From a phage, in sequence record NC_100327.1: DNA of 64,000 nt; one strand, given 5' to 3'. The number at the start of each line of letters is the position of its first letter. Position 1 is the stretch's first letter. The notes under the pieces are model-generated. The model saw only the letters and a list, made by a program, of their open reading frames with translations. It was not told the origin of the DNA and searched no databases. A program made the translations under genes and the position numbers. Shown here one piece after another: positions 42,655 to 47,973 of the stretch.

Positions 42655-42937
42655 GAAACCTGTAAAAGAGAAATTTGATAAGACAGCTTTTGTATTCGAT
42701 ACACCTCTGGACGACATCATTAGAGGTATGCAATCATTGTATCGGAAGGCTGAATCTGAGCAGCTGTCGGAATCAGAACTTTACTGGCTCGGTTGGTGGG
42801 AGTTAAACCTGCCTAAAGCTGAAAGTTCTTCTCTGAGAACTGTTAAAACGTGCGCCCAAGAAAACGCTGCACTTGGAATCTACCACAAAAGGAAAAGATC
42901 AACAAAAAGCTCTCCAAGAAAGACTAAAAAGTCTTGA
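42641..42937 (+). CDS. hypothetical protein with basic C-terminus
   Basis: 98-aa ORF overlapping the methyltransferase stop. Confidence 0.3.
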   Translation: MSMAKKPVKEKFDKTAFVFDTPLDDIIRGMQSLYRKAESEQLSESELYWLGWWELNLPKAESSSLRTVKTCAQENAALGIYHKRKRSTKSSPRKTKKS

Positions 42938-42963
42938 CAAAAGTGTTATTAATCTGATATTAT
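42934..42963 (+). promoter_or_regulatory. sigma70-like promoter candidate
   Basis: TTGACA (42934-42939), 18-nt spacer, TATTAT (42958-42963), ~35 nt upstream of the 42997 start. Confidence 0.5.
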
Positions 42964-42996: not shown

Positions 42997-43305
42997 ATGC
43001 TTAAAATTTTTATTGTTGAAGATAAAGATATTGTCCAGTTGTATGCAAACGAGAATCATAAAGGTATTATTCTGAAGAAGGAAAGCAACCTCTATGAAAA
43101 CACAATTCAACCTGGTGATGTAATTAAGATCTGTGGCTATCTGCTACCAGACTCATTGATGAAAATAACCCACCACTGGGGGTCTAATCCGTTCCTTTTT
43201 GAAAAGTATTGGGATGTTGAGTCACTTATTGCAGAGAGTGATGATGCATTTCATTACAGCATCCAACCATCTTGCAGAATAACTAACAGGAGGGTCTTTG
43301 AGTAG
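42997..43305 (+). CDS. hypothetical protein
   Basis: 102-aa ORF with ATG, AGGAGA RBS and an upstream promoter-like element. Confidence 0.35.
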   Translation: MLKIFIVEDKDIVQLYANENHKGIILKKESNLYENTIQPGDVIKICGYLLPDSLMKITHHWGSNPFLFEKYWDVESLIAESDDAFHYSIQPSCRITNRRVFE

Positions 43306-44437
43306 AGAATATCCACTTATTGAGTCCATAGATTGTCTAGCTGATCTTCTTGAACCTGACGCTATAGTTTATTATGACTTCGATCAGGTTGCATATCAAG
43401 CTGCAGCAAGTTGTGAAAAAAGGACAATTGAGGTAACACACAAAGCCTCCGGACGTAAGAAGATGTTTAAAACACGAACAGAGTTCTGGGGGCGGCAGAA
43501 GAACACCGTTGGTGGTTGGTTAAAAGCTGAGAATACCAACCGTGAAGCTGCATGTAAAAAGGCTGGCAAGGAGTTTATTCCGTGGACACGAGAAGATTTC
43601 GATGTCTTGGATATCCAAACCCCTGATCCTGTAGAGAACTGCTTGCACACAATTAAGTGTAAAGCTAATGCAGTCCTTAATTATCTCGGTATTCCGGAAG
43701 ATCGGTGCGTGGGGGTACTTGGAGGCACAGGTAATTTCAGACTAGATCTTCCCATGCCGGAAAGATATAAAGCCAACCGTAACAATACTCTTCGACCACT
43801 GCTGCTTGGAGATGCAAGACAGTATCTCCAAAAGCAGTATAATGCTCAAGTGATCAACGGTATCGAGGCTGACGACTGGTTAGCTATCCAGCAATTTGAA
43901 GGTTGGAACCACTACCAAAAAACAGGTAAGTTCAACAAGTTTATTATCTCTATTGATAAGGACCAAAGAACACTACCGGGGCTTGTGTTCGATCCCATGC
44001 GAAACGATAAGGGAGATTTTGTAAGGGAAACCCCTATGCTGATCGATAACGGTATGGGGAACATCTTCATGAAGCCTAATGGAGAGGTTGGCGGTTACGG
44101 GATGCTGTTCTTCGGATACCAAATGCTGTGTGGTGACTCTGCTGACAACATCAAGCCGTATCAAGGACTTATCGGTAAGGGTAAGTTCGGGGATGCCTCA
44201 GCATTCTACCTACTGTCTCAGTGCAGCACTCCAAAGGAGATGTGGGTGGCTATTATTGATCAGTACAAGAAGTGGTTCCCGAAAGGTGTTGTTAAGTATA
44301 CTGACTTCAATGGTATTGATCGTAGAATTTCCGTAGGTCAATGGATGAGTATAATTTTTGACTGTTTGTATATGAAGCGGACATTTAATGACCAGACAAA
44401 ACTTGTTAACGTTCTTAGAAATGTTGGAGCAATCTGA
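43298..44437 (+). CDS. 5'-3' exonuclease / flap endonuclease (RNase H-like)
   Basis: TTG start with AGGAGG RBS; GIEADDWLA matches the conserved acidic motif of 5' nucleases. Confidence 0.55.
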   Translation: MSREYPLIESIDCLADLLEPDAIVYYDFDQVAYQAAASCEKRTIEVTHKASGRKKMFKTRTEFWGRQKNTVGGWLKAENTNREAACKKAGKEFIPWTREDFDVLDIQTPDPVENCLHTIKCKANAVLNYLGIPEDRCVGVLGGTGNFRLDLPMPERYKANRNNTLRPLLLGDARQYLQKQYNAQVINGIEADDWLAIQQFEGWNHYQKTGKFNKFIISIDKDQRTLPGLVFDPMRNDKGDFVRETPMLIDNGMGNIFMKPNGEVGGYGMLFFGYQMLCGDSADNIKPYQGLIGKGKFGDASAFYLLSQCSTPKEMWVAIIDQYKKWFPKGVVKYTDFNGIDRRISVGQWMSIIFDCLYMKRTFNDQTKLVNVLRNVGAI

Positions 44438-44769
44438 TGACTAAAAATGCTGTAGATAACGCAATTATGGAAGCTGTTTTTGAGGATGATCACACAACAG
44501 GGACACTTAAAACAAAAAATACATTCGTTGTTGCCACAGGTATGTGGCGGTTGTATGAAGATGACACCATTTCATACATCCTGTACACGGATGATTACGC
44601 AGATGACCGTGTATGGTCTGCTGTTTTAAAAGAGGATTGTGAGCTGATTGAGGGCGAGCGGTTATGCATGTTCACCAGTGTGGAAACAGATGTTAAGCTT
44701 TGCTCTCTCGTCTTGTTCAAAGATAAGGCTTATGCTCCTGATGAAGGAGAGGAGGACGAGGAAGCATGA
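44437..44769 (+). CDS. hypothetical acidic protein
   Basis: 110-aa ORF, translationally coupled to neighbours. Confidence 0.3.
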   Translation: MTKNAVDNAIMEAVFEDDHTTGTLKTKNTFVVATGMWRLYEDDTISYILYTDDYADDRVWSAVLKEDCELIEGERLCMFTSVETDVKLCSLVLFKDKAYAPDEGEEDEEA

Positions 44770-45395
44770 GAGAGCGTCTATTATCCATAGACCAGTCGTT
44801 GACACACACAGCTTGCGTTGTATGGGACGATGGAAAGCCTGTTCATAAGGTTGTGTTACGAACTCAAAGCTCATCTGCAAAAGAGAAGAAACCAGGGACG
44901 GTTTCTTTTGCAACAGCTGCTGAGCGTATTGACTGGATCTGCAAACAGGTCAGATATTACATCCACACGCACGGCGTTGACACCGTGGTTATGGAAGGGC
45001 TTTCCTTTGGATCACGCGGGGATGCCACACGCGAACTGGCTGGGTTGTTTTACGGTCTTGAAGTTATGCTTTGGGATGCTTTAGCTGATTGTGAAAATGA
45101 CGGCCTGTTTAAGGTCCACACCGTGACACCAACAACTGCCAAAAAGTTTGCTCGTAGTCATCTTCCTGAGGAACTTGCTTTTGAGGAGAAGAAAAAGCTT
45201 GACAAAAAGACAGGTAAAGAGCATACTGTGAAGAAACCTGTTACGATGGATAAAAAGTTGATGGTTAAGGCCTGCGAAGTATCTGAACCTGGGTTCCTAG
45301 ATGGGATCAATTTGGTACAAGGTAAGGCCGATCTCGCAGATGCTTATTGGATAGGCAGGGCGCATCTGGAGGGGTTATCGCAAAGCGTAAAATAA
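44766..45395 (+). CDS. RuvC-like Holliday junction resolvase
   Basis: N-terminal LSIDQSLTHTACVVWD and acidic residues in a RuvC-like arrangement; 209 aa. Confidence 0.5.
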   Translation: MRERLLSIDQSLTHTACVVWDDGKPVHKVVLRTQSSSAKEKKPGTVSFATAAERIDWICKQVRYYIHTHGVDTVVMEGLSFGSRGDATRELAGLFYGLEVMLWDALADCENDGLFKVHTVTPTTAKKFARSHLPEELAFEEKKKLDKKTGKEHTVKKPVTMDKKLMVKACEVSEPGFLDGINLVQGKADLADAYWIGRAHLEGLSQSVK

Positions 45396-45472
45396 GAAAG
45401 AAAGCTGTCAAAGCCCCCGTTCATAGCGGGTGGCTAAAAGATTCTAAGGACATAGCCAACTTTCGAAAAGAA

Positions 45473-45952
45473 TTGTCAGAGGAGCAGGATGGTCTTGATC
45501 CGATCTTGTGCGAGCCACTTCGTAAGCCTTGTTTAGATCATGATCATCTGACTGGTCGTTGCAGGGGTGTTTTGTCTCAGTGCACTAATACCTTTGAGGG
45601 GTATGTGCTTAAATACTGGATGAAATACTGTAACGAGTATACAGATTGCAGTTTATCAGAGGCGTTGCGCCGGATGGCTGACTATCTGGAGAAAGACTAC
45701 AGCGACTTCCCGCTCCACAAAAACTACAGAGATGATATGACAAAGTTCTTGAGGAGATGCTCTAAAGCTACGATTATTGCACGAGCAGAATCAGATCTCA
45801 ATCTTGTCATTAATCCAGAGTGCACCAAGCATGAGGCTATTGAGTCCTACATGCAGGAGTTTATAAAGAAAACTGAGGAGAGAGATTTCTATGGGGATGA
45901 AAAAGGTATTCAATCCTTGCGACTCAGTCCTGATCAGGATGAAATACCGTAA
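45473..45952 (+). CDS. endonuclease VII-like HNH nuclease; start uncertain (track ORF begins at 45347 inside the RuvC-like gene)
   Basis: CLDHDHLTGRCRGVLSQC matches the T4 endonuclease VII core as I recall it; no ATG in the 5' region, nearest in-frame TTG at 45473. Confidence 0.45.
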   Translation: MSEEQDGLDPILCEPLRKPCLDHDHLTGRCRGVLSQCTNTFEGYVLKYWMKYCNEYTDCSLSEALRRMADYLEKDYSDFPLHKNYRDDMTKFLRRCSKATIIARAESDLNLVINPECTKHEAIESYMQEFIKKTEERDFYGDEKGIQSLRLSPDQDEIP

Positions 45953-46112
45953 CTGGAAAGGTGTTGTTGCAGATCGCTGCGTTACTGAGCCTAATTTATG
46001 GTTTGGCTCTACAGAGTATCATAAAGAAGAGCAGTGGTTGATGCATGCCTTTGATGTAGACAAGGGCGAATATCGTGACTTCGCTTTAAAAGACATTCTT
46101 CAGTTTTACTAA
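45891..46112 (+). CDS. hypothetical protein
   Basis: 73-aa ORF. Confidence 0.25.
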   Translation: MGMKKVFNPCDSVLIRMKYRNWKGVVADRCVTEPNLWFGSTEYHKEEQWLMHAFDVDKGEYRDFALKDILQFY

Positions 46113-46118
46113 GGAATT

Positions 46119-47108
46119 TTGACGATGATGACAAAGTTAACTCTTGAGCAAATTTTAACACTAAAGCAGCAGGGATACACTAATAGACAAATTGCTCGTG
46201 AATTTTTAGGCCGTGAGTCACGTGAGAGTTGGATCCGACTACAGCTTAAACGTGCACAAGAGAATATGTCAGAGATTGTAGGAGAAGCAACGGAGCGCTT
46301 CCTTGAAGAACACAAAGGAGCTAAAGTTTGGGTGTATGATACAGAAACATCACCAACAAACGGCTGGTTCTTTGGGCACTATAAGACCAACATTCAAACC
46401 TGCGGTATTGAAATTATGCCCTATATGCTAACTTTCGCAGGTAAGTGGTTAGACAGTCCTAGTGTGGTTGACTGCGCTCTTCCCGATTACAAAATGTGGG
46501 ATGAGGATATTCACAATGACCTCGAATTGATTCAGGACTTGTGGTATTATCTGGATAAATGTGATGTCGCAGTAGCCCACAATTCAGGTTTTGACTGTGG
46601 GTGGGCAAACCAACGATTTGCATTTCACGGGTTGCCTCCAACAAGCCCATACAAAGAGGTTGACACCCTTAAAATGATCAAGAAGGCATTCCGTTTGAAT
46701 GCAAACACTTTGGAGTATGCATGCAAATACTTCCAACTTGCCCGACAGAAACTGATTGACCACACATTTGAAATGTGGATCAAGTGTGTTCATGGTGATC
46801 TTGAGGCGTTTAAACAGATGCGGGAGTACAATGTTGGTGATATCCTATCTCTGGAAGGCCTGTATTTGCTGGCACGCCCGTTTGCTAAGCAGCACCCCAA
46901 CATGTCATTGTACTACCAGGATGAGGAGCCAAAAGTTCGTTGCCCACGCTGCGGTGGAGAACACCTTCACGAGGAAGAAGCTTTGGCGTATACTCAACTG
47001 AGTGCATTTAAAACATATCGCTGCGAAGGTTGTGGATCTGTTGTTCGTGACCGTAACAACATCCGTACCAGAGAAGAAATGAAAAACACCCTGATTCAGA
47101 TAATCTAA
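46119..47108 (+). CDS. DEDD-family 3'-5' exonuclease with N-terminal HTH and C-terminal zinc ribbon
   Basis: Exo motifs VWVYDTETS and AHNSGFDCGW; C-terminal CPRCGG...CEGCG. Confidence 0.5.
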   Translation: MTMMTKLTLEQILTLKQQGYTNRQIAREFLGRESRESWIRLQLKRAQENMSEIVGEATERFLEEHKGAKVWVYDTETSPTNGWFFGHYKTNIQTCGIEIMPYMLTFAGKWLDSPSVVDCALPDYKMWDEDIHNDLELIQDLWYYLDKCDVAVAHNSGFDCGWANQRFAFHGLPPTSPYKEVDTLKMIKKAFRLNANTLEYACKYFQLARQKLIDHTFEMWIKCVHGDLEAFKQMREYNVGDILSLEGLYLLARPFAKQHPNMSLYYQDEEPKVRCPRCGGEHLHEEEALAYTQLSAFKTYRCEGCGSVVRDRNNIRTREEMKNTLIQII

Positions 47109-47117
47109 TCAAGTATA

Positions 47118-47145
47118 GGGAGGCTTGCGCCTCCCTTTTCCTTTT
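47118..47145 (+). terminator. rho-independent terminator
   Basis: gggaggc ttgc gcctccc hairpin followed by TTTTCCTTTT. Confidence 0.6.
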
Positions 47146-47154
47146 GGAGGCACT

Positions 47155-47973
47155 TTGAGCAAGAAAGAGTCCAACGACAAATATTACACAAACCCTGAGT
47201 ATGCAGAATATCTTGTTGGTAAAGTAAAAGATAAGTATGGAAATTGTGCATACGTTGAGCCTTCTGCTGGAAGGGGTTCTTTTTCAAAACTATTTTCAGA
47301 GATACTGTCTTACGATCTAGTACCAGATCCTGAATTTGAAGGACCAACACCGTGCATTCAGGCAAACTTCTTGGAGGTGCATCCCAAGGCAGATGTCTTC
47401 ATAGGTAACCCACCATTTGGCAAGAATTCATCTTTAGCTTGCAAATTCTTTAACCATTGTGCATCATTGCTAGAGCTTGGAGGGGCTATAGCCTTCATCT
47501 TGCCACGGACATTTGAAAAAATATTTTTTGCAAACAAACTGGACATGTCGATGCACCTTGTCTACAGTGAAAGGTGCCCTAAGAACTCGTTTCTACTTAA
47601 TGGCAAACCTTATGACGTGCCGTGTGTTTTCCAAATTTGGGAGAAAAAGGCGTGCAACAGGGATCCTGTAGAGATTGGGGAGAATAAGTTATTTTCTTTT
47701 AGCACTCCAGATGACTACGACTTCTGTGTAAGACGTGTTGGGTATAATGCTGGAAAAGTATTGGGGGAGGATGACCCAAAATCTGAAGAATCAACATATT
47801 TCATAAAATCTTTAGTTGACGGTGTTGACAGAGTGTTTGCTGAATGCTATTCTTCTTTTCAAGAAGAAGCAGGTAAGACTGCCGGAATGAAGAGTATAGG
47901 TAAGAAAGAACTACAATACATTTTGGAGACTAGGTATGATCAAAAGCATAGACTTGACCAAAGAACTTACTGA
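47155..47973 (+). CDS. DNA N6-adenine methyltransferase (NPPF catalytic motif)
   Basis: Motif I VEPSAGRGSF and motif IV IGNPPFG; start set at TTG 47155 after a GGAGG RBS (track start lies inside the terminator hairpin). Confidence 0.55.
   Translation: MSKKESNDKYYTNPEYAEYLVGKVKDKYGNCAYVEPSAGRGSFSKLFSEILSYDLVPDPEFEGPTPCIQANFLEVHPKADVFIGNPPFGKNSSLACKFFNHCASLLELGGAIAFILPRTFEKIFFANKLDMSMHLVYSERCPKNSFLLNGKPYDVPCVFQIWEKKACNRDPVEIGENKLFSFSTPDDYDFCVRRVGYNAGKVLGEDDPKSEESTYFIKSLVDGVDRVFAECYSSFQEEAGKTAGMKSIGKKELQYILETRYDQKHRLDQRTY

Follow-up and report, generated by a model that had tools for sequence, protein, structure and literature searches.

An endonuclease VII gene with a candidate AUC start codon overlaps a RuvC-like resolvase gene in rV5-like phages

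In rV5-like phages, two different families of junction-resolving nucleases, one RuvC-like and one resembling T4 endonuclease VII, are kept as a linked gene pair. We analyzed this pair in a 64,000-nucleotide (nt) stretch of record NC_100327.1 (hereafter the window, whose positions serve as coordinates throughout), which derives from a Vequintavirus, an rV5-like phage of Escherichia coli; all features described lie on the strand as given. We propose with good confidence that the second reading frame of the pair is a separate gene for a T4-type endonuclease VII and would be translated from an AUC codon at 45377 to 45379, placed there by a Shine-Dalgarno sequence, GGAGG, at 45368 to 45372 (extended to GGAGGGG at 45368 to 45374) within the 3' end of the RuvC-like gene. 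A conserved, Shine-Dalgarno-led ATC start is also the most likely explanation for the inconsistent starts that databases now assign to this gene. The locus is a new, well-supported candidate for near-cognate initiation, and it involves no novel mechanism, fusion, or mobile element.

The RuvC-like Holliday junction resolvase gene occupies 44766 to 45395 (209 amino acids [aa]; ATG start, TAA stop at 45393 to 45395), and the second open reading frame (ORF) lies in the -1 frame relative to it and ends at 45952. A first-pass annotation of the window had described the two ORFs as adjacent, overlapping, and members of the RuvC-like and endonuclease VII-like families, which matches to PHROG 159, Pfam PF02945, PHROG 423, and known folds (detailed below) bear out. 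It had also taken the second frame to be open from 45347; the frame in fact opens at 45326, after a TAA at 45323 to 45325, and 45347 is its first TTG, which does overlap the 3' end of the RuvC-like gene. Upstream of the DHDH catalytic motif (45536 to 45547), the only canonical in-frame starts are the TTG codons at 45347, 45473, and 45506; there is no in-frame ATG, as that annotation had recognized, nor any GTG, and the first in-frame ATG of the second ORF lies 3' of the catalytic motif. Re-delimited from ATC 45377, the endonuclease VII gene would span 45377 to 45952 (191 aa plus the stop codon), overlapping the RuvC-like gene by 19 nt and beginning 16 nt upstream of the RuvC-like stop.

Across region 44400 to 46200, the window is 100% identical to phage inoa, and nucleotide comparison finds the same sequence at 90 to 100% identity in 120 phage records, so the arrangement is not a sequencing error. 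These 120 public genomes carry at least four different starts for the endonuclease VII gene. Phages inoa, CarlMeissner, and Murica are annotated from TTG 45347, ECP2309 and S127 BCL3 from TTG 45473, and V18 from an ATG beyond the catalytic motif (the more distant phage TH18 has a similarly truncated coding sequence), and gene-caller lengths of homologues range from 129 to 201 aa. Two curated RefSeq records, those of rV5, with an ATT directly 3' of GGAGGG, and PVP-SE1, with an ATC as the endonuclease VII start, partly anticipated a start at an isoleucine codon. In the rV5 genome paper (PMC3606486), we found no mention of the start codon, of endonuclease VII, or of a frameshift, and the literature that could be searched yielded no discussion of the PVP-SE1 ATC start or of a non-canonical start for this gene in general.

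Within the genus, we aligned ten Vequintavirus-like sequences and asked in which of the two frames each variable site is tolerated. Upstream of ATC 45377, seven of the eight variable sites fall at third positions of the RuvC frame, and seven of eight alter the residue or stop status when read in the endonuclease VII frame. Of the seven variable sites beyond the RuvC-like stop, six are synonymous in that second frame. Because the substitution pattern switches frame in this interval, constraint in the second frame begins between GGAGG and the RuvC-like stop. ATC 45377 itself is invariant in all ten sequences, and the codon directly before it varies (GTT, ATT, or TTT).

To extend the comparison beyond the genus, junctions were gathered from GenBank phages, IMG/VR, and metagenomes, and 35 distinct N-terminal sequences were tabulated. 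Lineages in which the two genes overlap or abut display a common arrangement, consisting of GGAGG, a 4-nt spacer, an in-frame ATC or ATA, and then a tail rich in lysine and arginine. The pattern holds in 24 distinct sequences from about nine lineages (Vequintavirus, Seunavirus, Mydovirus, Henunavirus, Stephanstirmvirinae, and uncultured clades), that is, in every overlapping or abutting lineage, with exceptions only in detail (GGGGG in two lineages and a spacing of 6 nt in the locus L025). The nucleotides of GGAGG are kept in all overlapping lineages while the surrounding RuvC-frame residues vary, and in L025 and phiTE, GGAGG stands in a different phase; the element therefore behaves as a Shine-Dalgarno sequence and not as the trace of a conserved Gly-Gly peptide. 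The endonuclease VII frame of L025 is closed by a TAA that stands a single codon ahead of the ATC, and the start there overlaps the RuvC-like stop in the sequence TAATC. Canonical candidates can be missing altogether, with no ATG, GTG, or TTG anywhere before DHDH in L095 or before the conserved Trp in TH18.

Where homologues do possess a canonical start, it stands at the position aligned with ATC 45377, from which the N terminus of the window protein reads IAKRKIRKK. An ATG occupies that position in L022 (MARTSKRK), P0061 (MARTSKRR), L116 (MAYKRKVK), L027 and L101 (MAVRP), P0064 (MAKRNKVR), and P0079 (MAKKPIIRK); a GTG does so in the phiTE clade (GTG-AIRTGRRRR), and a TTG in L047 (TTG-RRRYRKK) and L103. 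The first-pass annotation had expected that a conserved ATG in related genomes would point to an error. Such a codon does exist, in only the distant lineages L022, L027, L101, and L116, and what it marks is the position of the start and not a mistake in the sequence.

The geometry of the proposed start is also typical of the window, in which GGAGG-N4-start is the commonest arrangement (11 of the 22 GGAGG-led ORFs of at least 60 aa). Position 45377 is the sole Shine-Dalgarno-led ATH codon in the window to begin a long ORF that has no canonical start close by, and a scan of the window for other ATH-started genes returned none that were convincing. As a separate observation, GGAGG-N4 also serves genes initiated at TTG, namely, a 379-aa exonuclease at 43298 (43289 to 43300) and a methyltransferase ORF near 47155 (47146 to 47157).

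On the proposed model, the strong Shine-Dalgarno sequence, which lies 4 nt upstream of the AUC within the last RuvC-like codons, would position the ribosome at 45377, and we infer that the codon is decoded by initiator tRNA. The predicted product would be a 191-aa protein beginning with formylmethionine (fMet-AKRKIRKK...), with a basic tail, a beta-beta-alpha-Me core (D54, H55, H57, N71, and E74), and a C-terminal helical domain. Initiation at the AUC is probably weak. In E. coli, AUA, AUC, and AUU initiate at about 1 to 2% of the AUG level, and green fluorescent protein initiated at AUC carries an N-terminal methionine (bioRxiv 10.1101/063800). Because AUC and AUA reach only roughly 1 to 2% of AUG in these reporters, the weak codon most likely keeps a potentially toxic, branch-cutting nuclease at a low level. 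Conserved rare start codons can serve regulation (PMC5499595), and synthesis of the window protein may depend on ribosomes finishing the RuvC-like gene, a possibility to which we return below.

Among the alternatives, a start further downstream, yielding a shorter protein, survives best and is still unlikely. It would be either ATA 45392, which forms ATAA with the RuvC-like stop and could act by termination-reinitiation, or one of the TTG codons 45473 and 45506. An ATA overlaps the RuvC-like stop not only in the window but also in KB57, pEp_SNUABM_01, and KP13-16, and the records of ECP2309 and S127 BCL3 annotate TTG 45473; the ATA is nonetheless not conserved, since PVP-SE1 and L010 to L013 have GTA over the stop, and on these grounds we rejected it. 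Neither 45392 nor 45473 has a Shine-Dalgarno sequence at a usable distance. Initiation at TTG 45473 would delete a conserved, Trp-anchored N-terminal helix, the match to the PHROG 423 profile begins already at residue 29 of the 201-aa ORF, and the tail encoded upstream of 45473 is under purifying selection in the endonuclease VII frame. The first-pass annotation had suggested a non-canonical start and named TTG 45473 as an example; the first part stands, but the most likely codon is ATC 45377, since the named TTG would remove conserved coding sequence.

Less probable still, and also raised in the first-pass annotation, is a programmed -1 frameshift near the end of the RuvC-like gene, which would produce a RuvC-endonuclease VII fusion and relieve the second ORF of any need for a start. 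The candidate sites are G_GGG in GGAGGGG and A_AAA_TAA at the RuvC-like stop (45389 to 45395, where the sequence can also be read as an ATA-TAA overlap), with the Shine-Dalgarno-like GGAGG as stimulator. In its favor, the window and some relatives do have an internal element of this kind and short A- or G-runs, all overlapping lineages place endonuclease VII in the -1 frame with respect to the RuvC-like gene, and the canonical starts found where the RuvC overlap is lost are what this model, too, predicts. Against these points, no slippery heptamer or P-site slip site is conserved among about 35 distinct junctions. A re-pairing site at a shared position is lacking in L010 to L013, KB57, L095, pEp_SNUABM_01, KP13-16, and L032, and KB57, L095, pEp_SNUABM_01, KP13-16, and L025 have no re-pairing site whatever; the A-run of A_AAA_TAA, which thus goes unsupported as a slip site, is absent from L010 to L013, pEp_SNUABM_01, KP13-16, and L025. 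In L025, where the RuvC-like stop directly follows the TAA that precedes the ATC by one codon, a shift would need tRNA-Lys to re-pair on UAA, leaving essentially no room for the event. With 12 relatives as input, RNAalifold predicted 0 pairs, and the fold of the window sequence by itself (z = -1.7) is not significant. A frameshift also leaves unexplained both the fixed 4-nt distance from GGAGG to the isoleucine codon and the Met-initiated homologues that begin exactly there. Lacking a conserved slip site or RNA structure, the fusion was rejected.

There is very little to recommend TTG 45347 (45347 to 45349), the start given in most GenBank records, which would yield a 201-aa product. No canonical start precedes it in the open frame, and automated gene callers choose it. 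In 4 of the 10 Vequintavirus-like sequences (ECP2309, S127 BCL3, A147, and L009), an in-frame TAG lies between this TTG and GGAGG, created by a GGC-to-GGT change that is synonymous in the RuvC-like frame; because of this polymorphism, TTG 45347 cannot be the start and was rejected. The codon has no upstream Shine-Dalgarno sequence (the Murica annotators marked ribosome-binding sites for neighboring genes and none for this one), its presence is fixed by the conserved RuvC-like motif DAYWIG, and variable sites from there to the Shine-Dalgarno sequence follow the RuvC-like frame only. PVP-SE1, KB57, L095, and TH18 have no equivalent of it.

Weakest of all is the idea, likewise from the first-pass annotation, of a free-standing, mobile HNH/endonuclease VII-type homing endonuclease inserted beside the RuvC-like gene, which could appeal to the membership of endonuclease VII in the His-Me finger superfamily (which includes HNH homing endonucleases) and to other HNH genes nearby in the phage but which we rejected because the presence/absence polymorphism proposed as its check did not appear: all 120 related genomes, with coverage of at least 80% of the 1.8-kilobase (kb) query in each, contain the gene, which makes it a core gene. 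Its syntenic block is shared by five genera, and the match of its product to T4 endonuclease VII extends along the full chain and takes in the C-terminal helical domain, with no added DNA-binding modules.

Within the preferred reading, AUC initiation of a separate gene, endonuclease VII synthesis may be linked to RuvC-like translation. A stronger version, to which we assign a distinctly lower probability than to the start itself, holds that coupling is obligatory: the internal GGAGG would catch ribosomes as they complete the RuvC-like ORF, and these would begin again at AUC or AUA, codons that in this view would be too weak for efficient free initiation. On a rough, midpoint-rooted neighbor-joining tree without support values, isoleucine-codon starts occupy two clades, and canonical starts reappear at least twice (in the Certrevirus clade and in L022), with direct RuvC-like overlap lost both times; L022 has no RuvC-like gene within 2 kb. 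In L116, which has an ATG start, the RuvC-like and endonuclease VII genes abut without overlapping. We treat obligatory coupling as a hypothesis because of the lack of support values on the tree and because the frameshift model predicts the same correlation. If true, coupling would hold endonuclease VII in a fixed, low proportion to the RuvC-like protein, the resolvase with which it would act, would be a conserved, natural example of dosage control through reinitiation at a non-canonical codon, and would mean that loss of the overlap forces gain of a canonical start, apparently at least twice.

Several considerations weigh against the AUC start and its coupling. The support consists throughout of comparative sequence evidence, and the coupling argument leans on the unsupported, midpoint-rooted tree just described. 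AUC is a poor initiator in reporters, such that an unrecognized mechanism could contribute. The constant -1 phase of the endonuclease VII frame in every overlapping lineage is equally a prediction of the frameshift model. One locus that fits the pattern, L108, is ambiguous, having a GTG with its own AGGAG eight codons further downstream. Finally, rV5-type strains have an ATT directly before the ATC and an ATA over the RuvC stop, so that the comparison does not single out one initiating triplet for every strain.

The identity of the second ORF as a full-length member of the T4-type endonuclease VII family agrees among profile, catalytic residues, and predicted fold. It scores 31.7 bits against Pfam PF02945 (Endonuclease_7; cutoff, 23.6) and matches PHROG 423 with an expectation (E) value of 3e-37, and phmmer aligns it with T4 endonuclease VII at an E value of 9e-5, covering T4 residues 37 to 153. 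The AlphaFold model (predicted local distance difference test [pLDDT] of 88) is matched by Foldseek to T4 endonuclease VII structures 1E7L, 1EN7, and 2QNF (E values of 6e-7 to 4e-6), with template-modeling (TM) scores of 0.70 to 0.76, normalized to the target, over 152 to 157 columns that take in the C-terminal helical domain. The DHDH motif, comprising D54, H55, D56, and H57 (T4 D40, H41, D42, and H43), aligns with LDHDH of T4 endonuclease VII. Alignments A1 and A3 show no variation at D54, H55, H57, or N71 and little or none at E74; D56 is invariant in alignment A1 only. From these similarities, the protein is predicted to act like T4 endonuclease VII.

The two ends of the protein are its variable parts. 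Residues 1 to 18 (45377 to 45430), a Lys/Arg-rich tail reading (M/I)AKRKIRKKAVKAPVHSG, extend beyond T4 endonuclease VII; in every relative the tail is in frame and basic, although it varies in length and sequence. At the other end, residues 172 to 191 (residue 175 excepted) have a pLDDT below 50 and are unconserved beyond the genus. This predicted disordered, genus-specific stretch is where the gene is overlapped, by 62 nt, by a small, conserved downstream gene (45891 to 46112; 73 aa; PHROG 3715). The last 92 residues of the ORF (45674 to 45952) match end to end the 92 positions of phrog_29095 ("endonuclease"), which appears to be a spurious family seeded by truncated annotations that begin at the first ATG, such as those of V18 and TH18.

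The zinc site of T4 endonuclease VII is not preserved at the aligned positions. In the window family, its cysteines C23, C26, C58, and C61 are unconserved: T4 C58 is aligned to a Ser and C61 to a Thr, GLDPILC stands in place of the N-terminal CxxC in the window protein, and the corresponding columns vary across the family, with one of the four retained in KP13-16. The family may represent a zinc-free variant or have a rearranged metal site. The window protein has other cysteines, C45, C52, C62, and C69, all within residues 40 to 71 and varying among relatives; KP13-16 has only one Cys in this region.

The first ORF is, by its predicted structure, a RuvC-fold protein with a D-E-D-D tetrad. It matches PHROG 159 ("RuvC-like Holliday junction resolvase") with an E value of 3e-39, has no Pfam match at E values up to 0.01 (falling below detection by PF02075), and has no phmmer matches among PDB sequences; its distant homologues P0030 and P0032 do carry PF02075. 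For the AlphaFold model (pLDDT of 92), the eleven best Foldseek matches are all bacterial RuvC proteins (E values of 4e-8 to 1e-5; TM scores of 0.72 to 0.79, normalized to the target), and E. coli RuvC (1HJR) and the RuvC of lactococcal phage bIL67 (4KTW) are also matched. E77, D189, and D192 do not vary among 31 RuvC-like homologues, and D9 hardly does; judging by motif (IDQS, VMEG, and DxADAY), we take these four residues to be the equivalents of E. coli D7, E66, D138, and D141.

Both genes belong to a syntenic block, which runs 5' exonuclease, hypothetical protein, RuvC-like resolvase, endonuclease VII, small hypothetical protein, and DnaQ-like exonuclease and whose order is kept in Seunavirus, Mydovirus, Henunavirus, and one Stephanstirmvirinae phage. 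Certrevirus has an additional gene inserted between these two resolvase genes (phiTE, which is L006, at 903 to 1454, and L026 to L031). An extra gene likewise separates the pair in L047, which, like Certrevirus, has a canonical start; the metagenomic locus L103, also with a canonical start, has the two genes in the opposite order, endonuclease VII coming first. The window block is bracketed by a near-consensus sigma-70-like promoter at 42934 to 42963 (TTGACA-18-TATTAT with an extended -10 TG) and a terminator-like, GC-rich hairpin followed by a T-run at 47117 to 47136, both recognized by consensus match only, and this placement suggests that the six-gene nuclease block may form a single transcription unit. 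The DnaQ-like 3'-5' exonuclease gene (46119 to 47108) gives weak, subthreshold matches to a C-terminal zinc ribbon (CxxC...CxxC). Twenty records labeled "Campylobacter phage" (GenBank MG0656xx) are 97 to 98% identical to E. coli rV5-like phages over the locus, and the one that we opened, A147, is flagged UNVERIFIED; the Campylobacter host assignment of these records looks doubtful.

Very few genes of bacteria or phages have an accepted AUH start, and the present locus offers a deeply conserved AUC/AUA candidate, with unusually clean comparative evidence, in easily grown E. coli phages. Its value lies both in a natural, testable AUC/AUA start and in the correction of a widespread misannotation.

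The closest precedents for the proposed start are infC and pcnB, the only confirmed AUH starts of E. coli (bioRxiv 10.1101/063800), both of which begin with AUU. As in the window, AUH is the sole plausible start of these genes, is led by a Shine-Dalgarno sequence, and is phylogenetically conserved (PMC5499595). The window gene differs in using AUC (or AUA in relatives) instead of AUU, in encoding a phage nuclease, and in starting inside or abutting the 3' end of an upstream gene, and no autoregulatory logic of the kind known for initiation factor 3 is evident; moreover, its start has been assigned by comparison of sequences.

A second precedent is provided by translationally coupled gene pairs joined at ATGA or TAATG. 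L025 and L023 show TAATC, the same geometry with the ATG replaced, and pEp_SNUABM_01, KP13-16, L032, and L033 show ATAA or ATAG, with ATA in place of ATG. Unlike classical coupled pairs, these have a non-canonical restart codon, and the window start lies 16 nt 5' of the stop.

Of the two proteins, the RuvC-like resolvase has in common with the RuvC family (E. coli, Thermus thermophilus, and bIL67, PDB accession number 4KTW) the RuvC fold and D-E-D-D tetrad; at 209 aa, it contains insertions relative to RuvC proteins of ~160 aa, with TM scores of 0.56 to 0.61 when normalized to the query, and unlike theirs, its gene may be translationally linked to a second resolvase gene. The endonuclease VII differs from its T4 counterpart (gp49; PDB accession numbers 1EN7 and 2QNC; PF02945) in sequence (identity of about 22 to 24%), in the extra 18-residue Lys/Arg-rich N-terminal tail, in the loss of the zinc cysteines noted above, and, at the level of the gene, in the proposed AUC start and the overlap with the RuvC-like gene. 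Expression of T4 gene 49 is reportedly also restrained at the level of translation, as Barth et al. are said to have described in Genetics in 1988. The two proteins nonetheless have a whole-chain fold in common, with the catalytic D, H, H, N, and E of the T4 enzyme conserved in the window protein, and each is encoded by a core phage gene annotated as a debranching nuclease of packaging and recombination.

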